This document shows positions 1-59,097 of a stretch of DNA of 64,000 bases, one piece after another. The stretch is taken from NCBI RefSeq assembly GCF_055900595.2, contig NZ_CM148325.1; one strand, given 5' to 3'. Each line of letters begins with the position of its first letter. Position 1 is the first letter of the stretch. A program made the position numbers and the translations under genes. The notes under the pieces were generated by a model. That model made no database searches. It was not told where the DNA came from and saw nothing but the letters and a program-made list of their open reading frames with translations.

Positions 1-1904
1 AGTTGTGACTCAGTATACTGCGACGGAATATTGCCGCTGTCGATCATTGCCTGGAACTTGTTAGCAATCGCCAGGAAACCGACTTTCGCATCCGGGCTAA
101 ACGCTTTCTGCCAGCCTGCGGTCAGGGTACAAATCAGCAGCCAGGCCGTTGGTACCAGCGCCACCCAGGCGTAACGTTGACGTTTCATTTTGAACAACAC
201 CACGGCACAGAGCATCAGCGCCATCCCTGCCAGCATCTGGTTGGCAATACCAAACAGCGGCCACAGAGTGTTAATACCGCCCAGCGGATCGACCACGCCC
301 TGATGCAGGAAGTAGCCCCACGCCAGCACGCACAGCGCCGTTGCCAGCAGGTTAGCAGGCAGTGAATCGGTCCGTTTCAGACCCGGAGAAACCACGCCCA
401 GCAGATCCTGCAACATAAAGCGCGCAGCACGCGTACCTGCATCCACCGCCGTCAGAATAAACAGTGCTTCAAACAGAATGGCGAAGTGATACCAGAACGC
501 CACATCCATCATGCCGCCCAGCGCACCGTGCAGAATGTAGGCCATCCCCACCGCCAGCGTCGGCGCACCGCCCGCACGGGAAATGATCGACTGTTCACCC
601 ACTTCGCTGGCAATCTGATTTAACGTATCTGGCGTAATGCTAAAGCCCCAGCTACTCACTACCTGCGCAGCAGATGCCACTACATCCGCCGTCCCCGCCG
701 GAGCCAGCACCGCCATCGGGCTGTTCATCGCGAAGTACACGCCCGGATCGATGATACAGGCAGAAACCAGTGCCATAATCGCCACGAAGGATTCCATCAA
801 CATCCCGCCGTAGCCGATAAAGCACGCCTGACCTTCGTTCGCCAGCATCTTCGGTGTGGTGCCGGAAGAGATCAGCGCATGGAAGCCAGACACCGCGCCA
901 CAGGCGATAGTAATAAACAGGAACGGGAACAGATTACCGGTCCATACCGGGCCAGTGCCATCTACAAACTTGGTCAGCGCAGGCATGGTCAGCGTCGGAC
1001 GCATAATCAAAATGCCTACCGCCAGACCGACGATAGTCCCGATTTTCAGGAAGGTAGAGAGGTAGTCACGCGGAGCCAGCAGCAACCACACCGGCAGAAC
1101 CGCCGCCACAAAACCGTAACCCACCAGCATCCAGGTCAGCTGCACGCCGGTAAAGTCAAAGTACGGTGCCCAGGTCGGGCTTTCTGCCACCCAGCCGCCA
1201 GAGATAATGGCGAAAATAAGGAATACCAGGCCAATCACCGACACTTCCCCAATGCGGCCTGGACGCAGATAGCGCAGGTAAATCCCCATGAACAGCGCCA
1301 GCGGAATGGTGAACGCAACGGTATACGTTCCCCACGGGCTATGAGTCAGGGCTTTCACCACGATCATCGCCAGTACTGCAAGAATAATGACCATGATCAT
1401 AAAGCAGGCCACCAGCGCAATCACCCCGGCGGTTGGCCCCATCTCTTCTTTAACCAGCTCGCCCAGCGAGCGACCGTCACGGCGCGTGGAAACAAACAGC
1501 ACCATAAAATCCTGCACCGCACCGGCGAGAACCACCCCGGCAAGTAGCCAGATCATCCCCGGTAGGTAGCCCATTTGCGCCGCCAGTACCGGCCCCACCA
1601 ACGGGCCTGCTCCGGCAATGGCCGCAAAATGGTGACCGAACAGCACTTTCTTGTCCGTCGGCACATAGTCCAGCCCGTCGTTATGGCGCACCGCTGGCGT
1701 CATACGCGTCGGGTCAACCGCCAATACATTTTTGGCAATATAAAGACCATAAAAACGGTAAGCGATCAGATAGATACAGACCGACGCTACCACAATCCAC
1801 AGCGCGTTGATCTGTTCCCCACGATTTAAAGCAATGTATCCCAGAGCAAATGCTCCCATTACAGAGAGCACTGTCCAGACGAGGTATTTCCCTGATTTGT
1901 TCAT
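1..1904 (-). CDS. cstA: Carbon starvation protein A (peptide transporter), 3' end lies beyond the window start
   Basis: Minus-strand ATG at 1902-1904 translates to MNKSGKYLVWTVLSVMGAFALGYIAL..., matching CstA as recalled; the frame stays open to position 1. Plus-strand ORFs at 177-1829 are antisense to it. Confidence 0.85.
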   Translation of the reverse strand, partial: MNKSGKYLVWTVLSVMGAFALGYIALNRGEQINALWIVVASVCIYLIAYRFYGLYIAKNVLAVDPTRMTPAVRHNDGLDYVPTDKKVLFGHHFAAIAGAGPLVGPVLAAQMGYLPGMIWLLAGVVLAGAVQDFMVLFVSTRRDGRSLGELVKEEMGPTAGVIALVACFMIMVIILAVLAMIVVKALTHSPWGTYTVAFTIPLALFMGIYLRYLRPGRIGEVSVIGLVFLIFAIISGGWVAESPTWAPYFDFTGVQLTWMLVGYGFVAAVLPVWLLLAPRDYLSTFLKIGTIVGLAVGILIMRPTLTMPALTKFVDGTGPVWTGNLFPFLFITIACGAVSGFHALISSGTTPKMLANEGQACFIGYGGMLMESFVAIMALVSACIIDPGVYFAMNSPMAVLAPAGTADVVASAAQVVSSWGFSITPDTLNQIASEVGEQSIISRAGGAPTLAVGMAYILHGALGGMMDVAFWYHFAILFEALFILTAVDAGTRAARFMLQDLLGVVSPGLKRTDSLPANLLATALCVLAWGYFLHQGVVDPLGGINTLWPLFGIANQMLAGMALMLCAVVLFKMKRQRYAWVALVPTAWLLICTLTAGWQKAFSPDAKVGFLAIANKFQAMIDSGNIPSQYTESQ

Positions 1905-2084
1905 AGTTGTTATCCGTGTGCGTGTCCATAGAGATGTTACATTTTGTTTCTATAACATCTTTGTGCAATTTAACAACACGGCAACTATGTAAATCGGAGT
2001 TGAAACCAATATTTAACTTAACAATGTTAACTTGATCACTTCGTTAACTGAGTTTTCCTGCAATCTCATTTAATTCTGTCGGGT

Positions 2085-3246
<1,162 letters not shown>

Positions 3247-3247
<1 letters not shown>

Positions 3248-4104
3248 CATTTCACCTCGCGGGAGAGTAGCTTCCACCAGGCATCGATGGTCGGATTTTT
3301 CGCCAGCATGACAAAATCGATATCGCCATGCACTTTGCGCCAGCGCGCCGCCAGCGCCATCATGCGCACCGAATCCAGACCGTAATCAATTAGGTTGTCG
3401 TCATCGAACGGCTCATCGGACTCGTCCAGCAACGGCAAGATCACCTCACGCAGCGCCGATTTGCTGGCGGGGATAGGTACTGGCAGCAATTCTTCGGTCA
3501 TCACCACCCGGCCAGAACGTCCGGCCACATATTTCAGCGACATCAAATGCTCGTCACGGCTGAAATCGGCCAGCGCATCTGCCACCATAAACGGTTTAAT
3601 ATCGCGCATAAATGCGTCGGTTGCGGTGGTCATACAGCCAATGTGGGCGTACACCCCGGTTATAATCAGTTGGTTACGTCCACTCTCTTTGAGCATTTGT
3701 TCCAGCGGAGAACGATGAAACGCGCTGTAGCGCCACTTCACCAACACCGTGTCGTCGGCATCTGGCGTCAGGCGATCCACCACCTTTTGCTGTTCCGGTG
3801 AACGGGTCAGGCCCGGCCCCCACATATCATTCAACAGCGCCCGATCTTCATCGCTCTGCTCTTTCGGCTGGGCGGTGTAATAAACCGGGATATTGTGCTG
3901 TTTGCAGTAGTCGCGTAGTGCCGCAATATTCGCGATCACCTGCTCCATCATCGGGCAGTTCTCGCCCCAGAAGCTAACAAAATAGTCCTGCATATCATGG
4001 ATTAACAACGCGGCACGTTGCGGCTCAAAGGCCCAGTTGACTTTATTGTGCGGAATATCGTGAGACTCCGGCAGTGCGTAAGCCTGTAATTTTGGAATAG
4101 CCAT
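3247..4104 (-). CDS. entB: Isochorismatase / aryl carrier protein
   Basis: 285-aa ORF MAIPKLQAYALPESHDIPHNKVNWAFEPQRAALLIHDMQ... Confidence 0.9.
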
Positions 4105-4117
4105 CGTGTTCTCTCCT

Positions 4118-5728
4118 TCAGGCTGATGCGCGTGACGCCAGCCACTGACGTAATTGTTTTTTATCGACTTTCCCGACCGCCGTCAGCGGAAGTGAATCTA
4201 CACACTCCACGCGATCCGGTAATTTAAATTCGGCAATACCCTGTTCACGCAGGAAACGACGCACCTGTACCGCACGCAGTGGTTCTTTTACCACCAGATA
4301 AGCACAGCTTTTTTCGCCCATCAGCTCATCTTCCATGCTCACCAGTGCGGCGTAGATCACTGCCGGATGGCGCAGTAACAGGTTTTCGATCTCTTCGGCA
4401 GCGATCTTCTCGCCGCCACGGTTGATCTGATCTTTCTCGCGCCCCTGCACGGTGATGTACCCCTCTGGATCAATAGAGATCAGATCGCCGGAACAGTAAA
4501 AACCGTTGGCATCAAAGGCGCTGGCATTGTGCTGTGGACTTTTGTAATAGCCGCGGAAGGTGTACGGCCCGCGCGTCATCAGGCGTCCAACCTCCCCTTG
4601 CGGCAGTGGATTTCCGTCAGCATCGGCAACCCACACTTCATCATCCGGACACATTGGATAGCCCTGGGTATGGATAATTTTTTCCGCGCTATCATCAAGA
4701 CGGGTGTAGTTCACCAGCCCTTCCGCCATGCCGAATACCTGCTGTAACTGGCAGCCAATCTCTGCGGGAATACGCGCCGCAAGCGTGGCAGAAAGACGTG
4801 CGCCACCGACCTGTAACAGTTTCAGCGAGGCAAGCTGCGCCCGGCTTTCGCCTTCAGCCAGTGCCTGCAACCACAGGCTGACTGCTGGCGGCACCAGCGC
4901 GGTGACGTTCACCTGATGTTTTTCAATCAATGGGAAACAAAGCGTGGCGCTGGGGTCGGCAGCCAGAACGACAGTGCCGCCAGCGAGAAATACCCCCAAC
5001 GATCCCGGCGAACTCATGGCGTAGTTATGAGCCGCCGGGATCGCGCACAGGTAGCGCGTTTGTTGCGTGAACTGACAAATCTCGACGCTACGACGCACGC
5101 TGTAGTAGTAGTCGTTATGAGTGCGCGGGATCAGTTTCGGTGTGCCGGTGGTGCCGCCGGAAAGCTGGAAATAGGCCACTTCATCGGCAGGTGACGGTGT
5201 GGCAGTAAAATCCTCTGCCGGATGGTTAATCGCATCCTGCAAGTTATGCTCACCGCTGTCGTTCAGCAGCTGCACCACGCGAATGGAGGAGTGCTCTGCA
5301 ACAAATGTATTGAGGAAATCATCCCCGCTAAACAGCGCATGTTGGCGATCGGCAATCAGTAACACCGGTTTAATCTGGCTGGCGTATGCGTTCATTTCAC
5401 TACGCTGATGACTGAACAGCGCCAGTACCGGTGCAACGCCCAGTTTTAACAGCGCAAAAAAGGTAATATACAATTCAGCGACGTTACCCAGTTGTACCAG
5501 TGCGGTTTCACCGGGTTTAATGCCCTGACGACGCAAGCTACAGGCGAGATTATCCGCCGCCTGATTCAGTTCCCGGTAACTCAACTGACGCTCGCCGTCG
5601 ATGACCGCGATGCTGTCGCTTGCGGCATGACGGGTCAGAATGTCGGTCAGCGGCAAATCCTGCCAGTAGCCTTTTTCCCGATAGCGACGGGCAAACTCTT
5701 CCGGCCAGCGGGTGAATGGAATGCTCAT
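4118..5728 (-). CDS. entE: 2,3-dihydroxybenzoate-AMP ligase (adenylation enzyme)
   Basis: 536-aa ORF with adenylate-forming motifs ([14 protein letters not shown]-like). Confidence 0.9.
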
Positions 5729-12228: not shown

Positions 12229-13358
12229 ACTAAGTGGTCTGCCATCATGGCATCCTGTTTTCTGGATGCCATGGCATGGCGCAACAGCACGCTACCACAA
12301 GCCACCATACCGCCGATCAACGCAGAAAGGATCACGATAATCGCCTTACCCGGCCCGTCTTTTTTCACTGGCAATGACGGGCTTAACTGATATTTAAACG
12401 GCGTAAAATTCACATCGTTGATATTTGCTTTTGTTAGCTGCTCAACAAGATACTGACGATTACGTAATTCACCGTTCAGTTCCGCAACGTCAGTAACCGC
12501 TTTTTCAATTTCCAGTTTGCGTTCAATACCGTCTGCGCCGAGAGAAATAGAGAAATCGGGGTCATCTTTAACGGCCTGACCATTACTGTAAACGGGCTTT
12601 TTAATTCCTGCCGCGTTGGCAATGTCGAGTGAATAATTGAGGCGCTGAATGTTTGCATCAAGTTGATTTTTCGTTTTAATGCGATCCTGAGCCAGTTTTT
12701 CTTTTTCAAACTGGGTTTTGATCTCCAGTTTATTACGGACGTTTTCTATCGACTCTTTCACCACCAATGCAGAGATATAATCGATATACCCGCTCAAAAC
12801 GGTCTGCGCCTCTTCACTGGTTGGCGCGGTAAAACTTAGCGTCCAGGAGGCATACAGTGACGGTTCATCTTTTTTCTTACTGGCATTGTCATCAACCGCT
12901 TTCATTTTTTCGCTCAATGCGACGATAGCGCGATGCAAATCCAGTTCGTCGATTTTCGCCTCTTTTAATTGGTCCATCACATAAGGTGATGAGCGCAGGT
13001 ACTCTTCCAGTAAGCTAACAGACTGAAACTTCTTGATAAACAGGTTAAATGCTTCTGTACGATCAATTTTGATATCCAGATCCAGCACACGAAGCTTAGT
13101 GAATGTTTTCTCAAGCGCCTGCCACTGAACAGGTTCTGGAGGCGTGACAACCGCCGCGCTGGTCCATTTTTGCGGCAGGATGAAAGAGATCAGTAAACCT
13201 GCGCAGACAAACGCAAAAACGACCGCCATGACCGTTTTTTTGGCCCGCCATAAAACTTCAATTAGATTAAGTAAATCAATTTCATTATTACTGGGCGACG
13301 CCAGAGGATACTCGGGAAAATGAGCGTCACTTCCCTGTTTAATATTCAGTGATGACAT
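12225..13358 (-). CDS. fepE: FepE, polysaccharide co-polymerase (Wzz-like chain-length regulator) family
   Basis: 377-aa ORF with an N-terminal TM segment and a coiled-coil-rich periplasmic region; position as in K-12. Confidence 0.85.
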   Translation of the reverse strand: MSSLNIKQGSDAHFPEYPLASPSNNEIDLLNLIEVLWRAKKTVMAVVFAFVCAGLLISFILPQKWTSAAVVTPPEPVQWQALEKTFTKLRVLDLDIKIDRTEAFNLFIKKFQSVSLLEEYLRSSPYVMDQLKEAKIDELDLHRAIVALSEKMKAVDDNASKKKDEPSLYASWTLSFTAPTSEEAQTVLSGYIDYISALVVKESIENVRNKLEIKTQFEKEKLAQDRIKTKNQLDANIQRLNYSLDIANAAGIKKPVYSNGQAVKDDPDFSISLGADGIERKLEIEKAVTDVAELNGELRNRQYLVEQLTKANINDVNFTPFKYQLSPSLPVKKDGPGKAIIVILSALIGGMVACGSVLLRHAMASRKQDAMMADHLV

Positions 13359-50049: not shown

Positions 50050-50553
50050 TTATTGATAGTGTTTTATGTTCAGATAATGCCCGATGACTTTGTCATGCAG
50101 CTCCACCGATTTTGAGAACGACAGCGACTTCCGTCCCAGCCGTGCCAGGTGCTGCCTCAGATTCAGGTTATGCCGCTCAATTCGCTGCGTATATCGCTTG
50201 CTGATTACGTGCAGCTTTCCCTTCAGGCGGGATTCATACAGCGGCCAGCCATCCGTCATCCATATCACCACGTCAAAGGGTGACAGCAGGCTCATAAGAC
50301 GCCCCAGCGTCGCCATAGTGCGTTCACCGAATACGTGCGCAACAACCGTCTTCCGGAGCCTGTCATACGCGTAAAACAGCCAGCGCTGGCGCGATTTAGC
50401 CCCGACATAGCCCCACTGTTCGTCCATTTCCGCACAGACGATGACGTCACTGCCCGGCTGTATGCGCGAGGTTACCGACTGCGGCCTGAGTTTTTTAAGT
50501 GACGTAAAATCGTGTTGAGGCCAACGCCCATAATGCGGGCAGTTGCCCGGCAT
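50050..50553 (-). CDS. insB: IS1 InsB reading frame (expressed as an InsAB' fusion by -1 frameshift)
   Basis: 167-aa ORF ...[33 protein letters not shown]...; overlaps insA. Confidence 0.85.
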
Positions 50554-50747
50554 CCAACGCCATTCATGGCCATATCAATGATTTTCTGGTGCGTACCGGG
50601 TTGAGAAGCGGTGTAAGTGAACTGCAGTTGCCATGTTTTACGGCAGTGAGAGCAGAGATAGCGCTGATGTCCGGCGGTGCTTTTGCCGTTACGCACCACC
50701 CCGTCAGTAGCTGAACAGGAGGGACAGCTGATAGAAACAGAAGCCAC
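50472..50747 (-). CDS. insA: IS1 InsA protein
   Basis: 91-aa [43 protein letters not shown]... Confidence 0.85.
50488..50499 (-). promoter_or_regulatory. IS1 programmed -1 ribosomal frameshift site (A6C run)
   Basis: Minus strand reads CTTAAAAAACTC in the insA / insB overlap. Confidence 0.5.
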
Positions 50748-50801
50748 TGGAGCACCTCAAAAACACCATCATACACTAAATCAGTAAGTTGGCAGCATCA
50801 C

Positions 50802-51430
50802 CCATTACCGCCCATAATGATGATATTAGTGACGCCCTCACTAAATTCTGCGTAGCTCTCAATATCATCATTTGGATCAAAAGTTTCTTTATCCTTACCT
50901 GACCACTCAGCACCGCCAGACTGAGTGATGATATTTTGTGGTTTAATATTCCAGTCCAGCTCATAACGTTCAATACCATCGCCCTCAATGATATTTTTCC
51001 CCGTTGTGATTGCCTGAACGGCAAGCCATTCAATACGTGCACGAATAGCTTTAGCCTGATTTACAATCGCCTGTTTAACTTTAATATTACGCGCTCCAAA
51101 AGCATTGTATTGCTCAGGTGATACACCAGCAGGGCGCACAGCTAACTTATTTGGATCAATGCTGCTTTTCGGCTTCATATAGCCTGGACGAATTGTTTTT
51201 GATTCGAACCCTTCGTCACGTGAAACTTTACTACCCACCATAGGAGAACAAAACGCTGCAATTGGGATATTTGGATCGTCGATTGTATCAAGAATAATAT
51301 CGCGCGATTCAAACATTACCGAGCGAGTAAAAAACAAACTGGTAAACAACGCATTTAGTTGTTTTTGTACATCTACAGCATTAACCACCTGTACAAGCTG
51401 AGTAGGCGAATATAAATCAACCATACGCAT
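50802..51430 (-). pseudogene. Divergent lambda-E-like major capsid protein gene, 3'-truncated by IS1
   Basis: ATG at 51430 gives MRMVDLYSPTQLV... (compare lambda E MSMYTTAQLLA); continues ...NIITQSGGAEWSGKDKETFDPNDDIESYAEFSEGVTNIII (compare lambda E NNITQSGGTEWSKRDKSTYDPTDDIEAYALNASGVVNIIV), then runs into the IS1 end after about 206 codons. Confidence 0.6.
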
Positions 51431-51640
51431 CCTCTTTGCATTCATTAAAAATAATTGTGGATATATGCTATCACCGATATTTGTCATGCGAACACATGCA
51501 ACCGAGTGCAATGTTGTATAAAGTTTTGGGGTGACAACTTCAGTGCGGACAATTAGTGTTAATATCTTCACTCCCTTTGGTCGGGATTTATGTAGCATGC
51601 CGGAAAATTTATTTTTTCTGGCTTTTTTTATTGGCAATAT

Positions 51641-52090
51641 TTAAAACGGGATATCATCTCCCCATTGCTCATTATCTCCCACTGGTGGCTGGCTTCCTTG
51701 CTGATCTGCCTGTTGTTTTGCTCTGTTCAGTGCGTCAGTAGCCTGCCCCTGTTGGCCTTTATTGCCGCCCGGTCGCACCGATCGCGCACTGATTACGCTG
51801 TCTGCGATAACCTGCCAGCCCTGCCGCGTTTCGCCGTTCTGTCCAGTCCACTGGCTCATCTGCATGTTACCCGCCACGCTCAGGAGTTCGCCTTTGTGAT
51901 GCTTTGCCAGCGCGTCGGCTTGTCTGCCAAACGCCAGGACAGATAACCACATCGTCGCCTGACCGTCATCCGACTGACTGCAGGGCAGTGATACCGCCAT
52001 ACGCGCCAGCGTCATGGGGGTGCCCTTGCTGGTCTGTTTTGTCTGCGGGTCGTCCACCAACCGCCCGTAAACTGATATTTGCGCCGTCAT
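51641..52090 (-). CDS. ssb: Single-stranded DNA-binding protein
   Basis: 149-aa ORF with an OB-fold-like N-terminal region, a Gly/Gln-rich linker and the acidic SSB tail ending DDIPF. Confidence 0.75.
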   Translation of the reverse strand: MTAQISVYGRLVDDPQTKQTSKGTPMTLARMAVSLPCSQSDDGQATMWLSVLAFGRQADALAKHHKGELLSVAGNMQMSQWTGQNGETRQGWQVIADSVISARSVRPGGNKGQQGQATDALNRAKQQADQQGSQPPVGDNEQWGDDIPF

Positions 52091-52332
52091 GCTGCCTGCT
52101 CTCCGGACTTAATATTGATTGTTGTCACTTCCTCCGCTTCAGCAATCTCCCGTTCGGTCAGAGTGGCAAAGTTTGCAGCCGCCGTTGTCATGAATGCGCT
52201 AATCAGTTCGGGATGTGCTTTCGCGTATCCTTCCCCGGCGTTGCGGTCGATGATTTTTATCGACACCCTTAACCAGTGTTCCGTCAAATCAAGGGCGTGC
52301 GATTGTGATTTTTTTGTGTGCTTCGCTGTCAT
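52087..52332 (-). CDS. Hypothetical protein, translationally coupled to ssb
   Basis: 81-aa ORF whose stop overlaps the ssb start (ATGA); no family recognised. Confidence 0.45.
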   Translation of the reverse strand: MTAKHTKKSQSHALDLTEHWLRVSIKIIDRNAGEGYAKAHPELISAFMTTAAANFATLTEREIAEAEEVTTINIKSGEQAA

Positions 52333-52379
52333 AGGCTTTATCTCACAGCAGTAAATTAAAATTTTTGCGTTTTAACCCT

Positions 52380-52610
52380 TCACCTGTTCACCTTTTGATA
52401 TTTTCTCTTTTAATTCATAATGTTAATGGGTGAACAGTTTCACAAAAACTATTCACCAACTGTTCACCACTGTTCACCCTTGAAGCTCAATAAACAATCA
52501 AAAAGGTGAACAGTGAATAGTTTGGTGAACAGTTCATAAATAACTGTTCACCCTATAATATACTGATATAAAAGATATTTATGACAGGGTGAACAGTGGT
52601 GAACAGTTAT
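52380..52610. repeat. Iteron array (about ten copies of CTGTTCACC / GGTGAACAG in both orientations), putative satellite origin of replication
   Basis: Copies near 52385, 52429, 52451 (variant), 52461, 52471, 52505, 52524, 52545, 52588 and 52598, interspersed with AT-rich spacers; the octamer TGTTCACC is the P4 type I iteron as recalled; lies directly 3' of the primase gene. Confidence 0.65.
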
Positions 52611-52619
52611 TCCATAAGT

Positions 52620-54440
52620 TTAATTTTTGCTATCGTCATTAGTGACCGATACACATGATGGCATCCAGTCTTCTGATTCCTCCGTCAGTGTCACGTTTGA
52701 ACGCAAACCGTGCTTCGTTTTCCGTTTCATATACTCCCTGCCATATTCCGCCATTGCCCCCGGCATATCTTTACCGAAGCGCGTCAGTGTTACAGGTTTA
52801 CCAAACCCATGTGCCCTCATATAAGCCAGATAGGCATGATAGAGATACCTGCGTGGGCTAAATGGCACAATTTCAGCATTACCCACTAACAGGCCATCAC
52901 ACATTACCGATGCCATGAGATAGCCGCAGAAGTCCACCAGCGAATCCCCCTCTCGCTTTATCGCCAGTGCTTCTTCAGATTTCTGCTGCTCATATAACAG
53001 GCGTCTGGCTTCGTCCTGATCATCAAACCGTGTAAGCAGATGACGAATCACTACCGCCAGCTCACCTTCTATTTTTTCCGCCAGCATCGAATCGCGTTCG
53101 TTCTCCGGTACAACTTCCGAAAAATTGAATATCACCCGACGACGTGAGATCCCCCCGCTGCGGTCACTGAATGACATGGCGTTATTGTTAACCGCCAGCA
53201 CTACTGCCGGAATACGCGTTGAATAGGGGGCTTTGTGTTTCGGGTCAATTGCCACCTTGTCACCGCCTGTAATGGCCTTAATCCCTGCCCCATCACCAGC
53301 GTAGCGGGTCATATCCGGCATGATAATCAGCGAAAAGCCAACCACTAACGCACGTTCCCTTGCATCTTCCAGCGCCTTCATGCTTGCTGATACTGTATTA
53401 GCCTTACCCGCCAGCATGGTGCAAATCTCCGCCATCACACTTTTACCACTTCCCCCCGGCCCTGTTACCTCAATGAATAACTGCCAGTCGTACCGGTTCG
53501 CCAGCACCATGAATAATGCCGCCAGTACGCGATCTGCCTTGCGGTCATTCTCAGCCACCGAACGGCGCAACCACTTCCAGAAATTCGGCGCATGTGTTGC
53601 CAGCGTTTCCCCCTCTGCTGGTGGGCTGAAAGGTAATTCACTGGCAATTAACAACCAGTCGTTTTTGTTATGCTCCCGAAAATTACCTGTTCTGGTATCA
53701 AATACCCCGTTACTGAATCCAATCAGGTTACGGGCTGTATTCCCCATTACAGGCAAACTTAACTTCATGGTATCTACCGCCGATTTAATGGCGTTCTGCG
53801 AATAGCTGATCTCCACATCAATGAAAATCTGCGCCATAGCACGCTGTAACTCTTTATCCTGAACCGGCTCCCATACAACGCCGTTGTAATGATGAACGGT
53901 GTCAGAGTCGGCATTGATTGCCAGTTCGCCGCCGTAATGTGCCAGGAGAACTTCACCGCGCTGGCTGGCCCCCATCTGATTCAACGCCAAAGATGAAGCA
54001 CGCTCGTCATTTTTGCGCTCTGCCTTCTTCACTGGCAGTTCAATCACCAGACTTTCCCCATGCTCCGCTTCAGCTTTTAGGCCGACAAGGCGCGGAGTCC
54101 AGTCTTCAGGCTCTCGATCAACAAAGCTACGGTAACAACGTGCTTCCTTTACGCCTGCAATAGCAAGTAATGTCGCAACCTTCGTCAGATTTTTCTCTGC
54201 GATCTTTCCGGCACGATAAACACGCACATAATGACGGCCTTCATCGATAATTTGCATATCATCCAGGTTTTCCAGTTGTTCCGTACCCAGAATTACTGGT
54301 GGTGTATCATCTGCTGCAATATGCTTACCCGCCCATTCATTCCATTCTTTTGCATGGCTCCAGGCATCACTGCCAGCAAAAATGATGACTTCTGTCATTT
54401 TGTCGCGCGGTTGGTATTTTAAGTTCGGAGCACGTTTCAT
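52620..54440 (-). CDS. Primase/helicase-type replication initiator (P4 alpha / D5-like, P-loop NTPase)
   Basis: 606-aa ORF; Walker A GPGGSGKS in the C-terminal half; iterons immediately downstream. Confidence 0.8.
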   Translation of the reverse strand: MKRAPNLKYQPRDKMTEVIIFAGSDAWSHAKEWNEWAGKHIAADDTPPVILGTEQLENLDDMQIIDEGRHYVRVYRAGKIAEKNLTKVATLLAIAGVKEARCYRSFVDREPEDWTPRLVGLKAEAEHGESLVIELPVKKAERKNDERASSLALNQMGASQRGEVLLAHYGGELAINADSDTVHHYNGVVWEPVQDKELQRAMAQIFIDVEISYSQNAIKSAVDTMKLSLPVMGNTARNLIGFSNGVFDTRTGNFREHNKNDWLLIASELPFSPPAEGETLATHAPNFWKWLRRSVAENDRKADRVLAALFMVLANRYDWQLFIEVTGPGGSGKSVMAEICTMLAGKANTVSASMKALEDARERALVVGFSLIIMPDMTRYAGDGAGIKAITGGDKVAIDPKHKAPYSTRIPAVVLAVNNNAMSFSDRSGGISRRRVIFNFSEVVPENERDSMLAEKIEGELAVVIRHLLTRFDDQDEARRLLYEQQKSEEALAIKREGDSLVDFCGYLMASVMCDGLLVGNAEIVPFSPRRYLYHAYLAYMRAHGFGKPVTLTRFGKDMPGAMAEYGREYMKRKTKHGLRSNVTLTEESEDWMPSCVSVTNDDSKN

Positions 54441-54724
54441 TTGTTACCTCCGGCAACTAACATTGCCCGAATTTTGCGGATATAGCCTGCGGCACGCCTC
54501 TGATTATCTGTCTTGCAATTTTTTACCAGAATGAAATCTCTTTCGAACTGCTGACGCGGCATAACACATTCAAAATCATAACCATCACGCAAATAAGAGA
54601 CACGACGATCATCAACCGAAATAATCTTTACCCGATAGCCATAGCTGTCTTTGAAAATATCCCCAAGGCTGATTTTTGAATGAGTTTGACCGCTGGCAAT
54701 AAAGCCAGAAAATTTATTTTTCAT
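54437..54724 (-). CDS. Hypothetical small basic protein, translationally coupled to the primase
   Basis: 95-aa ORF with a GGAG ribosome-binding site 8 nt upstream of the ATG; stop overlaps the primase ATG (ATGA). Confidence 0.45.
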   Translation of the reverse strand: MKNKFSGFIASGQTHSKISLGDIFKDSYGYRVKIISVDDRRVSYLRDGYDFECVMPRQQFERDFILVKNCKTDNQRRAAGYIRKIRAMLVAGGNK

Positions 54725-54727
54725 TTT

Positions 54728-54952
54728 TTATTCTCCGGTATAGCTCTGGTCGTGTATTTTTATAGCTTCATCCAGCTCTTTGATGACAGGATCAAGTAAC
54801 GTAATTAACGCTCCAGCTAAATTAGCATCCCGTTCATCGTGTTCCGCATTTGTTGTCCCATCAAGCCAGGTTGATAAGATTTCTCGCATATTTTTGCCAC
54901 AAACGAGCGCGTTTTCAGCATGTGTCAGCACTTTAAAATAAAGATCATTCAT
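54728..54952 (-). CDS. Hypothetical small acidic protein
   Basis: 74-aa ORF in the same operon-like array upstream of the primase. Confidence 0.4.
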   Translation of the reverse strand: MNDLYFKVLTHAENALVCGKNMREILSTWLDGTTNAEHDERDANLAGALITLLDPVIKELDEAIKIHDQSYTGE

Positions 54953-55148
54953 GGCACACCTCCTGACGAATACGGGCGGCGAATATCATCACGTAGCCAG
55001 TTGGGGATTGCAGCCGGGCTTCCTGTTCGCTGGCGGCCTCGATGGTAATCACGCGCGGTTGTGCCGTACTCAGGGCGATAAAACGCCAGATGTATTTATT
55101 CAGGTTGTGCGGGTCCCGCCCTTGCGGGTGTGTGGTATGATTTCTCAT
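54945..55148 (-). CDS. Hypothetical small protein (first gene of the leftward replication operon)
   Basis: ATG at 55148 with a GAGG ribosome-binding site 7 nt upstream gives MRNHTTHPQGRDPHNLNKYIWRFIAL...; the longer ORF to 55259 is probably an extension. Confidence 0.4.
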   Translation of the reverse strand: MRNHTTHPQGRDPHNLNKYIWRFIALSTAQPRVITIEAASEQEARLQSPTGYVMIFAARIRQEVCHE

Positions 55149-55287
55149 AGCTACCTCGATACTGTTGCTATCGTTGGTGGTTAGAAGCCCGTTGGTGTTC
55201 CTAGCACCTTCGGGCTTTGCTTTTTTAAGTGCCTCCGTGTTAAGGTGGTCACCTAACAATGAAAAGGCTAATTCAATAGGTGGTCAC

Positions 55288-55479
55288 TTGTCAACGATCA
55301 AACGCGATAAAAGTCCTAAGGGTGATGGGCAATCTCCACAATTCAGAATGCGAATTTCTCCAGAGCTAAAAGAGCAATTCGACAAAGAAGCGCAGAGCGA
55401 CGGCATAAGCCTAGCCAACTGGCTTAAAGAATTAGGGCGCAAAGAGCTGCTACGGCGCGGTATTGAACCAAAAGGATAA
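55288..55479 (+). CDS. Putative ribbon-helix-helix (Arc/MetJ-like) DNA-binding protein
   Basis: TTG at 55288 preceded by AGGTGG; product ...FRMRISPELKEQFDKEAQSDGISLANWLKELGRKEL has the beta-strand then two-helix pattern of Arc-type repressors; an alternative ATG start at 55348 is possible. Confidence 0.5.
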   Translation: MSTIKRDKSPKGDGQSPQFRMRISPELKEQFDKEAQSDGISLANWLKELGRKELLRRGIEPKG

Positions 55480-55506
55480 GAATAATTGAAGTCAAGGAGC
55501 TAACAC

Positions 55507-55863
55507 ATGAAATACGAATTCTTCGCAACAAGTAGCAGTAGTTTGGATGTATACATAGTCACTGTATCAAACGATTCTGGCTCTCTAATCATGACTTGTA
55601 ATTGTCCAGCAGGAAGTAAAGGTATTCTATGTAGACACCGTAAAGCTTTAATTACCGGAAAAATCCGCGGTATATTCACTCCCCCAAGAAGGAATAATCC
55701 CGAAAAATTACAAGAAGCTATAAATTTAATAGCCACATATGGCATAGATAAAACATTAAAGTTGTACACTGATGAGTTAGAACGAGCAGAACAGACTTGG
55801 ATAAGTGTTCGCGATAATTTGAGAGCAATGATAAACGCTCTTGTTGAACCACCTAAATATTGA
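55507..55863 (+). CDS. Small SWIM-type zinc-finger protein
   Basis: 118-aa ORF with an AAGGAG ribosome-binding site; CNCPAGSKGILCRH fits the SWIM CxCx(n)CxH motif. Confidence 0.55.
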   Translation: MKYEFFATSSSSLDVYIVTVSNDSGSLIMTCNCPAGSKGILCRHRKALITGKIRGIFTPPRRNNPEKLQEAINLIATYGIDKTLKLYTDELERAEQTWISVRDNLRAMINALVEPPKY

Positions 55864-55929
55864 ACTGTTCACATTGCCTATCAGGCGATAACCTCGTATT
55901 CTGATTAAGGCTAACTATATACTCACATT

Positions 55930-55955
55930 GGCGACCAATTCTGGTCGCCTTTATC
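55930..55955 (+). terminator. Rho-independent terminator after the SWIM gene
   Basis: GGCGACCA-ATTC-TGGTCGCC hairpin followed by TTTATC. Confidence 0.5.
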
Positions 55956-55994
55956 TACCATTTTTATAATATCATAGATTAAGAGTGTTAATCC

Positions 55995-56816
55995 TTACCC
56001 CCTGAATGGAATTGATGAGGATTTAATTTCCACAGAACCAAATCCTCTTGAATCCAAAAACATTTTTATACCAGCCTCAATAAAATCATAATCGCTTGTC
56101 GGGCCAATTGTAATGCTTTTAATTGGTAACTTTCTATTATCTTTATTATTAATAATGATATAAGGGATGATACCATTATTATTTATTCTAAATTTCACAT
56201 CTGGCATTTGTATCCACGGAGTAAACACCAGTCTAAATTCATTTTCTTCGATAAAACTAGGATGTTTAAAAAATGGGATATATTTAGATATAAATTGATA
56301 CGTAGAGACCATTGTTACAAAATGATCATTCATTTCTTTAATGTTAATACCATTACAAGAAAAAAACTCATCCAACTCCTTACTCATCTTTGTAATATCG
56401 TCATTATTTGAATATATAACATCATGTGCAACACAATTTAAATAAATATTTTGACAAAAACTCACAAGTTCATCCGCATCAAATTCAATGCAAACGCCCT
56501 GTTTATTTCCGTAACCTCTCCACTGACTTAACTTATCGTTTTCTTTACAAAAAGATATGCTATAAACATGTTTATCAATCCCTTTTTCTTTTTGTAACTT
56601 CCCTTTCTCATACATGTCAAGAGACTTGAGCAAAATAGTTTTCTTATCTTTTGGGATGATATTATCATCAACTATTTTAATTGTATTTCGAAAACATTCA
56701 CATCCATGGTTAGACTCCTCTTTATCATTTAAGAAATATATATTTGTAGCCCATAAAGAATTAGAGTCTAATATACCTTTCAAACCAAAAAGATCTGTAT
56801 AATGAAATATAGCCAC
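55995..56816 (-). CDS. DUF2971-like protein of unknown function on an AT-rich cargo segment
   Basis: GTG at 56816 preceded by AGGTGG gives (M)AIFHYTDLFGLKGILDSNSLWATNIYFLNDKEE...; the N-terminal aromatic-HYT ... LW ... NDxxE pattern is assigned to DUF2971 from memory; markedly AT-rich by eye compared with the neighbouring int/alpA. Confidence 0.6.
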   Translation of the reverse strand: MAIFHYTDLFGLKGILDSNSLWATNIYFLNDKEESNHGCECFRNTIKIVDDNIIPKDKKTILLKSLDMYEKGKLQKEKGIDKHVYSISFCKENDKLSQWRGYGNKQGVCIEFDADELVSFCQNIYLNCVAHDVIYSNNDDITKMSKELDEFFSCNGINIKEMNDHFVTMVSTYQFISKYIPFFKHPSFIEENEFRLVFTPWIQMPDVKFRINNNGIIPYIIINNKDNRKLPIKSITIGPTSDYDFIEAGIKMFLDSRGFGSVEIKSSSIPFRG

Positions 56817-56833
56817 AATGCCCCACCTAATAG

Positions 56834-57064
56834 TTAAGTCGTTTCCCACTCACCTCGAATCCATGCCTGCACTTCTGAAAGACGATATGCAACAGCAGTG
56901 GAACCAATCTTGATCCGCTTAGGAAATTTTCCTTCCTTCTCCAGCTTCCAGCGTGTGCTGTTCGCAAGAGTGGTTAGCTCCCGACATTCTTTCTCACGGA
57001 TCATACGATCGATGTTAGGAATGTACTCCAGACCCTTTTTATCAACAATTGCCATTTTTTTCAT
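56834..57064 (-). CDS. alpA: AlpA-family transcriptional regulator / excisionase-like protein
   Basis: 76-aa MKKMAIVDKKGLEYIPNIDRMIREKECRELTTLANSTRWKLEKEGKFPKRIKIGSTAVAYRLSEVQAWI..., immediately downstream of the integrase. Confidence 0.8.
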   Translation of the reverse strand: MKKMAIVDKKGLEYIPNIDRMIREKECRELTTLANSTRWKLEKEGKFPKRIKIGSTAVAYRLSEVQAWIRGEWETT

Positions 57065-57065
57065 G

Positions 57066-58301
57066 TTAACCAGCCTTTTGTTTGAGGATTGTCACTTTTG
57101 AATCAGCACCTGCGATGCTATTGAGATATGTAGTCCAGAGTTCCAGAGCATCCAGTTTTTTAGCCATAAACTTACTCCGGTTGTAAACACCCGCCACGCC
57201 AGGTAGCGCATGGCCTAACAGTTGTTCTACTACATAAAATTCAACACCGAGATCACTTAGATGAGTAGATAGCGTTCTTCTAAGGTCGTGTAGTGACCAT
57301 TGTTTTTCATGGCCCAAACGTTTACCGATTTTCCCCCCAATCTTGCTTACGCTTTCTCTAATTCGCAGACTTCCCAGCACATAACCAGTATGTTTTGTCT
57401 CTTCGTGAACATCCGTTACCCACTGTCGTAGAATTTCAGGTACTGGTCTGACGATTTCAACACCAGTTTTTGAGTGATCTTTTGGTACCGTCCAAACCCA
57501 ACTTTCGAGATCCCATTCGCTCCATTCAGATAATCGGGCTTCACTCATTCGACATCCAAATACTGTACAAAGCACAAACATTTTTCGCGTGTATTCAGAC
57601 ATTAGTTTTAAATCAGGCTCGACAAAAATTGCCTTCCAGAGCTGGCCGAGTTCGGCTTCATCCAGAACCCGATCCCGCTTACCTGCAATCTGCCCCACAT
57701 CACTCATGCGCAAATCCTTTAAAGCATCACACGTCGCGTACTGGCGTACCCGACAAAAACGAAGAGCTAATTTAGTGTCAGAAAAAACATACGCCGCCAT
57801 AACTGGTGCATTACGTTTAATTCGGTCAAAACAGTCCAGCCATTCATATAGGTGAGTGTCATTTACGGGCAAATGACCGATATAGGGAAAGATATGCTTT
57901 CGAAATCTGCCAAGCGTTACAGCATGAGTTTTACGACGCACCTTACAGTAATTTTCATACCAGTAATTTAGTGCATCCTCCACTGTGACCGGCTTTAAGC
58001 GTTCTTCAGCCTGAATCTTAATCTGGATACGCGGATCACGTTTGTCAGCCAACCAACCACGGCACTCGTCGCGCTTTTCCCTTGCCTGTTTGAGTGACAT
58101 ATCAGGATATTTACCCAACGTTAGCCAGACCGGAGCAGCCCGGCCACCTGCTAACCTGTAGAAGAAAACAAAGCTCACAGCCCCTTTAGTACTCACACGA
58201 ATAGAAAGCCCCTTTCCATCAGCAATGGTGATCTGCTTTTCTCTGGGTTTCCCCAGATATCCTTTAAGCGCTTTGTCGCTCAGTTTGTTCTCGCCAGCCA
58301 T
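57066..58301 (-). CDS. Tyrosine recombinase, P4-type integrase
   Basis: ATG at 58299-58301 gives MAGENKLSDKALKGYLGKPREKQITIADGKGLSIRV...; C-terminal catalytic region with ...HDLRRT... and ...LLGHAL...Y motifs; the 5' end sits about 160 bp from the point where the E gene breaks. Confidence 0.85.
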   Translation of the reverse strand: MAGENKLSDKALKGYLGKPREKQITIADGKGLSIRVSTKGAVSFVFFYRLAGGRAAPVWLTLGKYPDMSLKQAREKRDECRGWLADKRDPRIQIKIQAEERLKPVTVEDALNYWYENYCKVRRKTHAVTLGRFRKHIFPYIGHLPVNDTHLYEWLDCFDRIKRNAPVMAAYVFSDTKLALRFCRVRQYATCDALKDLRMSDVGQIAGKRDRVLDEAELGQLWKAIFVEPDLKLMSEYTRKMFVLCTVFGCRMSEARLSEWSEWDLESWVWTVPKDHSKTGVEIVRPVPEILRQWVTDVHEETKHTGYVLGSLRIRESVSKIGGKIGKRLGHEKQWSLHDLRRTLSTHLSDLGVEFYVVEQLLGHALPGVAGVYNRSKFMAKKLDALELWTTYLNSIAGADSKVTILKQKAG

Positions 58302-58433
58302 TTTTAGCCCCAAAAAGCAATACAAGCTGCAATACAGAGATGATTGCAACACACAGATAACGAGGAAAATTCAGTGAAAGCACCAGATAAACTTATTCTT
58401 TATTATCAAAAGATTAAGTGTAAAAACCAGCAA

Positions 58434-58709
58434 CTACACGAAAGCCTCAGAAAGCCATGCTAAGTGCTTGGGTTTGACATAACCCGGCGTAAATTCAGAG
58501 GTGGAGCCGCCACGGGATCGGATAACCTCACCGGAAACAATCGGCGAAACGTACAGCGCCATGTTTACCAGTCCCGGAATTTGTGAGAGATAGACTTTTT
58601 CCGTGGTGAAAGGATAGGTTTCACGGAAAAACAGGCGCAGAAACAGCGGATCGAACTTAAAGTGATGCTGGGTCGATGCCAGTAATTCTGCAGTTGTATA
58701 TACAGACAT
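58434..58709 (-). pseudogene. Lambda-like major capsid protein E, N-terminal 82 codons only
   Basis: MSVYTTAELLASTQHHFKFDPLFLRLFFRETYPFTTEKVYLSQIPGLVNMALYVSPIVSGEVIRSRGGSTSEFTPGYVKPKH then unrelated LAWLSEAFV and a stop; similarity to lambda E ends at 58463/58464. Confidence 0.8.
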
Positions 58710-58764
58710 AAATTATTTCCATAAAAAAAGCCGCACAGGCGGCCTTTGTTGATGAAGGGGAAGA

Positions 58765-59097
58765 TTAAACGATGCTGATTGCCGTTCCGGCAAACGCGGT
58801 CCGTTTTTTAGTCTCGTCGCTGGCAGCCTCCGGCCAGAGCACATCCTCATAACGGAACGAGCCGGACTTGTAGAACGTCAGTGTGGTGCTGGTCTGGTCA
58901 GCAGCAACCGCCAGAATGCCAACGGCTGCACCGTCGGTGGTGCCATCCCACACAACCAGCTTACGGGTAGTGCCATCCAGCATCAGCGGGGTCATTGCAG
59001 GCGTTTTCGCACTCAATCCGCCAGGCGCAATTGCTGTATGAGCCGGATCACTGTTACCCAGCGGCTGGTAATGGTTAAACTCTTCTTTTGTCGCCAT
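58765..59097 (-). CDS. Head decoration protein (lambda D-like)
   Basis: 110-aa [42 protein letters not shown]...FAGTAISIV, close to lambda gpD as recalled. Confidence 0.9.

Follow-up and report, generated by a model that had tools for sequence, protein, structure and literature searches.

A swappable DUF2971 gene, a candidate ribbon-helix-helix regulator and an optional SWIM gene in an Escherichia coli helper-embedded phage satellite

Positions 55148–56816 of a 64,000-nucleotide stretch of contig NZ_CM148325.1 (assembly GCF_055900595.2; hereafter the window) had been singled out from the letters alone as an AT-rich cargo island in a satellite, holding three genes that might act together and possibly against phages: one for a ribbon-helix-helix (RHH) protein, one for a SWIM zinc-finger protein and a convergent DUF2971 gene. 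All three open reading frames (ORFs) are present, with RHH and SWIM on the plus strand and DUF2971 facing them on the minus strand. On our analysis the interval probably comprises three separable parts of a helper-embedded phage-inducible chromosomal island (HE-PICI), namely a DUF2971 cargo gene, an RHH regulator that belongs to the satellite backbone, and an optional SWIM gene. The features on which this reading turns are:

55288–55479 (+): RHH gene, 63 amino acids, TTG start
55507–55863 (+): SWIM gene, 118 amino acids, 36 per cent GC; stand-alone protein with CxC-x8-CxH and a long C-terminal helix
55930–55949 (+): terminator-like hairpin GGCGACCA-attc-TGGTCGCC, placed where the SWIM and DUF2971 genes converge; conserved backbone, within the block common to strain E1
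55953–56845 (−): variable cargo cassette in the Bro zone downstream of alpA, 29 per cent GC; limits are the breakpoints relative to strain E1
55995–56816 (−): DUF2971 gene, 273 amino acids, GTG (not ATG) start six bases after AGGTGG

The limits of the cassette were found by alignment to strain E1, whose integrase and SWIM proteins and insertion site are the same as those of the window element but whose cargo differs. The two are homologous over 54900–55952 and again from 56846, so the exchanged block is the DUF2971 gene alone; RHH, SWIM and the terminator hairpin (which had been claimed after the SWIM gene and was recovered here) lie outside it, in backbone common to both elements. The variable slot that had been proposed is therefore real for DUF2971, which is AT-rich and horizontally acquired, and does not extend to RHH and SWIM, which fall outside the swap boundaries. 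Base composition divides the interval in another place: DUF2971 (29 per cent GC) and SWIM (36 per cent) are AT-rich as described, and RHH, at 46 per cent, matches the satellite backbone (47 per cent).

A survey of 5426 complete E. coli genomes identified the DUF2971 allele of this slot in 35, a 265-amino acid membrane protein with a weak phrog_2611 match in 4 and a 273-amino acid phrog_16034 protein in 4. In the prototype, strain NRG 857C, the slot is empty on the alpA strand, and a YlcI/YnfO family regulator followed by a 178-amino acid gene stands in place of RHH and SWIM. Segment 55953–56845 is thus a precise swap slot, for which one backbone shows three or more unrelated alleles, and a small, clean place to seek new accessory or defence genes. 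Slot occupants sit close behind alpA: DUF2971 begins 17 nt after the alpA stop on the same strand, the cargo of strain E1 overlaps alpA, and the gaps in loci L015 and L024 are 26–27 nt. The alternative occupants (5953–6750 in L011, which is strain E1; 4388–5089 in L024; 5207–5974 in L015; 2261–3082 in L028) are also AT-rich, at 35–36 per cent GC where measured, and none of these genes had a PADLOC match. Members of the phrog_2611-like family, all weak matches, are 233–265 amino acids long, with two predicted membrane helices in the E1 member. The L028 protein, at 273 amino acids, was checked as a possible diverged DUF2971 allele of equal length and is unrelated.

The idea that the three genes form one system does not survive these boundaries, which enclose DUF2971 only, and the genes do not co-occur across lineages. 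An RHH–SWIM pair 74 per cent identical to that of the window occupies the same position without DUF2971, in elements with other integrases and other replication and capsid modules; the SWIM cluster of this type (P0123) was seen on 372 contigs, and all six places examined lacked DUF2971. Klebsiella satellites too carry RHH and SWIM without it. A K. aerogenes satellite has a DUF2971 homologue and an RHH-like gene with no SWIM, one from Enterobacter kobei has RHH only, with a phrog_2611-like gene ahead of DUF2971, and one from Buttiauxella has DUF2971 together with RHH and a SWIM-like gene. A single system in which RHH or SWIM would neutralize, or sense for, an ADP-ribosyltransferase (ART) toxin encoded by DUF2971 is largely refuted by this distribution, and we consider it very improbable. 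It could draw on the adjoining, convergent arrangement in 35 E. coli genomes, on the meeting of all three gene types in Buttiauxella, on the NCBI label ‘HicB family antitoxin’ for RHH homologues and on the ART gene having no evident antitoxin of its own. Yet the swap boundary leaves RHH, SWIM and the terminator out of the cassette, the same RHH–SWIM pair lies beside two unrelated cargo genes, plasmid copies of DUF2971 have neither partner (and the K. aerogenes and Enterobacter elements no SWIM), and Proteus and Dickeya satellites keep RHH alone. There is also no HicA partner, the RHH protein lacks the N-terminal HicB domain, and the GC contents of the three genes point to three separate histories.

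A narrower link is unlikely as well, though less so: SWIM might be the regulatory partner of RHH, either a sensor or an adaptor that binds an anti-repressor and couples the switch to a helper signal. The SWIM gene begins 27 nt downstream of the RHH stop and seems to share with RHH a transcript that ends at the hairpin at 55930, the pairing is kept across three SWIM subtypes and several backbones, and in a lambdoid prophage a SWIM relative directly follows an S24 CI-type repressor gene. Many satellites nonetheless have RHH without SWIM (O157, Enterobacter, K. aerogenes, Proteus and Dickeya), NRG 857C has a different gene at the place after its regulator, and SWIM is at 36 per cent GC against 46 per cent for RHH. 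Other SWIM relatives occupy moron positions with no regulator adjoining, one inserted on the opposite strand of a lambdoid early region and one between tail genes of a Mu-like prophage. Under the preferred reading of three separable parts, SWIM is an optional, foreign-looking second gene of the RHH operon.

The domain calls of the original prediction hold up in hidden Markov model searches (DUF2971 at 1e-11, SWIM at 3.9e-5, RHH at 1.2e-6 and 6.9e-4). For the cargo gene, the match to Pfam DUF2971 (PF11185) spans model positions 1–89 of 89, and all 36 aligned homologues (29–60 per cent identity) match the same family. We place the start at 56816 because all 35 aligned homologues begin four residues ahead of the HYT motif; these N-termini rule out a longer ORF from 56849. 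Invariant or nearly so across the 36 homologues are H5-Y6-T7, W22-A-T, N30-D31, E34, S97-Q-W-R-G-Y102, Y135, K184 and E190-E191-x-E193-x-R195. These residues include the His of motif I, the Tyr of motif II and the catalytic Glu (ExE) of motif III that mark the H-Y-E clade of ARTs, in which a 2025 survey (PMC12522546) places DUF2971 near DarT, AbiGi and Tox-ART-HYD1. The AlphaFold2 (AF2) model (pLDDT 88) has the ART core fold; its closest solved structures are DarT and Tpt1, and Foldseek gives the same top matches. Both of these enzymes are nucleic-acid-modifying NAD+ transferases. Motifs and model together show a predicted ADP-ribosyltransferase fold with an intact H-Y-E/ExE motif.

DarT, the toxin of DarTG toxin–antitoxin and anti-phage systems, is an ADP-ribosyltransferase of single-stranded DNA. 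By its model the window protein is DarT-type at the level of fold and not a member of the DarT family: identity to DarT is 9–14 per cent, there is no Pfam DarT match, and the protein adds two large helical inserts and, at its C-terminus, a beta-rich region. Its locus differs from DarTG in having no DarG macrodomain antitoxin, the cassette being a single ORF with alpA and SWIM as neighbours. A search of PDB sequences with the DUF2971 profile found no relative, the only matches (GABA receptors, over the short stretch LWATN..FLNDK) being spurious, and the GenBank phage collection gave only three weak matches, at 27–28 per cent identity.

Relatives occur on satellites and plasmids. Homologues of 43–60 per cent identity lie directly after int-alpA in satellites of Klebsiella, Buttiauxella and Enterobacter, and relatives of 39–48 per cent identity are found on 559 plasmids. 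One of these, on an IncI plasmid, sits beside an Abi_C ‘abortive infection family’ gene and DUF3800; a Klebsiella plasmid holds an alpA-alpA-DUF2971 remnant between IS5 copies. Between two E. coli alleles of DUF2971 the dN/dS ratio is 0.11, which shows that the gene is under purifying selection.

A validated precedent for the family is Aristaios, a single DUF2971 gene of Lactococcus with an anti-phage, abortive-infection phenotype (NAR 2024, PMC11381338). The window gene resembles it in being a single gene with a Pfam DUF2971 domain, a predicted ART fold, a location on a mobile element and no partner antitoxin, the likeness being one of domain and single-gene layout. The two differ in length (316 amino acids in Aristaios and 273 here) and in setting, Aristaios coming from a Gram-positive, lactococcal plasmid and the window gene from an E. 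coli phage satellite in which it is embedded in the int-alpA operon. By this analogy DUF2971 would be a stand-alone abortive-infection effector of the Aristaios kind. Upon phage infection it would ADP-ribosylate nucleic acid (less likely protein) and so stop replication. The cassette appears to have no antitoxin gene, and control might come from low basal int-alpA transcription, from the two helical inserts acting as a trigger sensor, or from both. The anti-phage role that had been suggested for all three genes is plausible for DUF2971 as a single gene, on the strength of the ART fold, the Aristaios precedent and the plasmid relatives beside Abi_C.

The element that carries these genes is an E. 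coli HE-PICI of the 11capE type that lies in a lambdoid prophage, within the major capsid gene. The class and type were described by Tommasini, Mageeney & Williams 2023 (PMC10111431), who reported roughly 490 HE-PICIs and divide such elements into four zones (Integration, Bro, Replication and Late) and term the Bro zone, after alpA, dynamic. The backbone genes next to the interval are:

54945–55148 (−): icd-like protein gene, first of the leftward (replication) operon; NCBIfam phage_ICD_like 7.4e-19 and RefSeq annotation in an intact twin
56834–57064 (−): alpA, excisionase/activator family, directly upstream of the cargo gene; phrog_2790 5.8e-18, annotated in the twin
57066–58301 (−): tyrosine integrase of the HE-PICI clade that targets lambdoid capsid gene E; phrog_1 2.4e-64, 1236 nt in the twin

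The intact twin, NZ_CP018206 (locus L001, to which the twin coordinates below refer), is 100 per cent identical over the three-gene interval and 98.3 per cent identical over 13.2 kb. Its genes run int, alpA and DUF2971, then SWIM and RHH on the opposite strand, followed by icd-like, hypothetical, DUF4222, primase, hypothetical and single-stranded DNA-binding protein genes; its far part holds an E-like capsid gene of its own, a D-like decoration gene, a helix-turn-helix (HTH) gene and a gene for a TIR protein. The capsid gene of the prophage is split, with pieces on both sides of the satellite (12365–12610 and 800–1588), and the window retains a 5′ fragment at 58434–58709 (−). The twin therefore has both the int-alpA-...-primase-late order of HE-PICIs and their integration within a late gene of a lambdoid prophage. 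Strain MRSN346647 is an example of a host with an intact element. The alpA gene of the window is 99.5 per cent identical to that of NRG 857C. The satellite is a helper-embedded Gram-negative PICI and not P4-like, although it has a P4-family primase.

The window element shares with published HE-PICIs the integrase, alpA and primase backbone and the insertion in lambdoid capsid gene E, and its cargo occupies the spot where PMC10111431 puts the variable Bro zone. It differs in that the occupant is an ART-fold gene and not a Bro-network protein, and in that the window copy is truncated by IS1. The opposite-strand genes are treated as hypothetical in PMC10111431, and the RHH regulator, its operators and SWIM are not discussed there. 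Related insertions lie in prophage late genes of Enterobacter, Buttiauxella and Klebsiella (loci L017, L014, L012 and L024).

The place of DUF2971 within this element raises the main rival for the role of the cargo, that the ART is a factor of the satellite life cycle or of helper interference and not of host defence. It would then be made with int and alpA upon helper induction and modify nucleic acid or proteins of the helper or host, in favour of satellite packaging, akin to phage-encoded ARTs that reprogram the host. We regard this as an unlikely but serious candidate. DUF2971 follows alpA closely on the same strand with no separate upstream promoter found, and cargo in the slot is always close behind alpA; the slot itself is the regulatory ‘Bro zone’, and the Klebsiella plasmid remnant has retained alpA-alpA-DUF2971 together. 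AlpA is an activator with helper-dependent expression (PMC6092414), and helper late transcription reading into int has been proposed for HE-PICIs (PMC10111431). Nevertheless, near-identical satellites have unrelated genes or nothing in the slot, so DUF2971 is not required for the life cycle; conjugative plasmids carry relatives with an Abi_C gene as neighbour and at a distance from any satellite; and the sole DUF2971 protein to have been tested is an anti-phage abortive-infection gene. Several observations do count against our preferred reading of DUF2971 as an abortive-infection effector. The apparent co-transcription with alpA, a helper-switched gene, is explained no less well by a role in the induced cycle of the satellite than by a constitutive defence. 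PADLOC matches were partial and at domain level only (PDC-S31 at 2.3e-4, 74/259 positions; PDC-S62 at 4.9e-5, 85/566), and the searchable literature held nothing on either model. Lastly, the gene is interrupted by IS3 in 2 of the 35 genomes and has IS5 between its matched pieces in a third, and it is therefore dispensable; three others of the 35 have IS1414 within the SWIM gene. A joint reading is possible, if doubtful. In it, the ART would be an antitoxin-less, DarT-like enzyme gated by the induction circuit of the satellite, through alpA and helper late transcription, and so an abortive or anti-competitor weapon fired only when a phage is active; the RHH protein would be the global repressor of Gram-negative PICIs, acting via GGTGnnCACC operators over the leftward promoter.

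Whatever the role of the cargo, the RHH gene is by its distribution a core gene of this PICI family and not cargo. It matches the phrog_228 Arc-like repressors (1.2e-6) and Pfam HicB (6.9e-4), and its family comprises 55 clusters across Enterobacterales. In Proteus and Dickeya satellites the 63-amino acid RHH gene is the sole opposite-strand gene, with neither SWIM nor DUF2971 alongside; it has a Bro, pRha or AntA gene on one side and the replication operon on the other. The original prediction saw no obvious role for it in satellite maintenance; conservation across related satellites, even alone, makes such a role an obvious candidate, and we propose RHH as a candidate repressor and core divergent regulator of the family. 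In size, RHH signature and tandem palindromes over promoter elements and its own gene start it resembles repressors of the Arc/MetJ/CopG type, from which it differs in being known by profile-level similarity only (the two matches above), its DNA binding being predicted. RefSeq names RHH homologues ‘HicB family antitoxin’, but no HicA-like ORF was found in the window or in comparison loci L002–L033, and the protein covers only positions 18–48 of the 51 in the Pfam HicB model and lacks the N-terminal domain of RNase-H-like fold found in HicB.

The RHH gene is not called in RefSeq annotations of these genomes, which place a minus-strand pseudogene there instead. The PGAP minus-strand ‘hypothetical protein’ or pseudogene covers 55212–55478 (−) in the window and encodes 247 amino acids in O157:H7 (locus L010, 4910–5653). 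We rejected the O157:H7 ORF as the true gene: it is interrupted by stop codons in most elements and matches no family, and it looks like an antisense artefact. The plus-strand RHH ORF is intact in every related element examined, and the orthologue in strain E1 has ATG at the position of the window TTG, with the N-terminal MSTIKRDK.PKG stretch conserved. The strand call was made on ORF integrity and family matches. The dN/dS ratio of RHH is low (0.046), and one antisense frame is equally low, so that this test does not separate the two; an equally low ratio is expected for an antisense frame that shares wobble positions.

A 139-bp spacer separates the icd-like start (55148) from that of the RHH gene and has the following candidate control elements:

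55184–55226 (+): conserved hairpin (55184–55218) followed by a T-run (55221–55226), with invariant TGGTTAGA upstream
55244–55253 and 55279–55288: two operator-like 10-bp palindromes, GGTGGTCACC and GGTGGTCACT, 35 bp centre to centre
55265–55294 (−): candidate leftward promoter of the icd-like/replication operon, with −35 TTGACA, an 18-nt spacer and −10-like TAGCCT

Both palindromes fit GGTGnnCACC and flank the candidate leftward promoter, whose hexamers were read from the sequence as a perfect TTGACA (55294–55289) and TAGCCT (55270–55265). The GTCAA core of the −35 is invariant in 8 satellites, in two of which it is non-coding. The right palindrome, GGTGGTCACT, overlaps the ribosome-binding site and start of the RHH gene, and AGGTGG, which does precede both the RHH and DUF2971 starts as had been noted, is before RHH a portion of the repeated GGTGGTCAC(C/T) palindrome. 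The palindrome arms co-vary by element type, with GGTGTACACC in E1 and GTACGTAC in the 74 per cent-identical type; the type GGTGACCACC is kept in E. coli O157, Proteus and Dickeya, and other arms are found in Klebsiella and Enterobacter. The right palindrome would fall within the promoter spacer and the left one on the predicted start of transcription, from which we infer the layout of a repressed promoter, and the position of the right palindrome over the RHH ribosome-binding site and start suggests autoregulation. RHH dimers would bind the palindromes, repress the leftward TTGACA promoter of the icd-like/primase operon and autoregulate their own gene, which would keep the satellite quiescent. 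SWIM would be expressed in this resident state and act on DNA or on a DNA-bound partner.

Weighing against this account are the poor −10 of the leftward promoter, which a consensus scan did not report, the absence of a clear promoter for the RHH gene and the dN/dS test above, with its equally low antisense frame. The scan, which required 4/6 matches in each hexamer, gave no more matches than the shuffled expectation, and those within the AT-rich gene are not credible. Whether a global repressor exists was called unclear in the 2018 paper that described Gram-negative PICIs (PMC6092414).

The hairpin at 55184–55218 is conserved in its structure: an RNAalifold analysis of 11 satellites, which come from at least six genera, found compensatory double changes in 7 of the 13 pairs. 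It remains 83 per cent identical to Klebsiella elements in which the flanks are not alignable. The hairpin and T-run have no Rfam family match; across 51000–58800, a search at a permissive threshold yielded only chance matches (miRNA and PAGEV) and no credible family such as C4 or isrK. The element could be a plus-strand intrinsic-terminator-like structure or a leader structure of the leftward operon. As a terminator, it might act on plus-strand RNA antisense to the start of the icd-like gene.

The SWIM protein matches PF04434 at E = 3.9e-5 and phrog_13130 at 1e-82, and C31, C33, C42 and H44 (CxC..CxH) are invariant in 66 homologues. The close family has 8 clusters, and a profile search of 1.84 billion representatives found 529 relatives at E <= 0.001, nearly all of them stand-alone proteins of 105–125 amino acids that align from end to end. 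The family, of proteins about 115 amino acids long, occurs in prophage immunity regions. A few members have BRCT, RNase_T exonuclease plus BRCT (confirmed by Pfam) or a membrane helix as a fusion partner, or are tandem duplications; these fusions hint at a role linked to DNA. The GenBank phage collection contained no SWIM homologue. One relative is found in another capsid-embedded satellite, with a different cargo gene adjoining. The AF2 model (pLDDT 94) consists of a three-stranded sheet, a zinc knuckle and a 34-residue C-terminal helix, and had no informative structural neighbour.

Satellites carry defence cargo, and DUF2971 as an ART, HE-PICIs and single-gene DUF2971 defence are all published already, so the overall picture would be little surprise to a specialist. 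If DUF2971 protects E. coli, a defence family tested so far only in Lactococcus would reach enterobacterial satellites and several hundred enterobacterial plasmids with relatives, and would offer a tractable example of an antitoxin-free ART effector. RHH and its operators are a candidate for the silencing of Gram-negative PICIs. The operator arrangement of RHH and the antitoxin-less ART are the parts of most experimental worth.

The window copy of the satellite is cut by IS1 (insA/insB ORFs, 50050–50747) inside the E-like capsid gene, at ~50803; the regions concerned are 50050–50803 and 50798–51637 in the window and 800–4704 in the twin. Compared with the twin it lacks the decoration, HTH and TIR genes, attR and the 3′ part of the prophage capsid gene, and precise excision is probably not possible. 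In intact copies the far end of the satellite carries a gene for a 380-amino acid TIR-domain protein (1798–2940, +, in the twin; not in the window), with a PADLOC match to TIR-PNTD (Aga-type) models at 1.6e-17 and a weaker one to ThsB. This gene is a second cargo slot of the satellite, with a clearer defence-like gene. Downstream of the primase, at 52432–52548, is a long AT-rich inverted repeat that Rfam scored as a chance miRNA-like match; it agrees in position with the replication origin region of PICIs, which has been described as lying downstream of pri.

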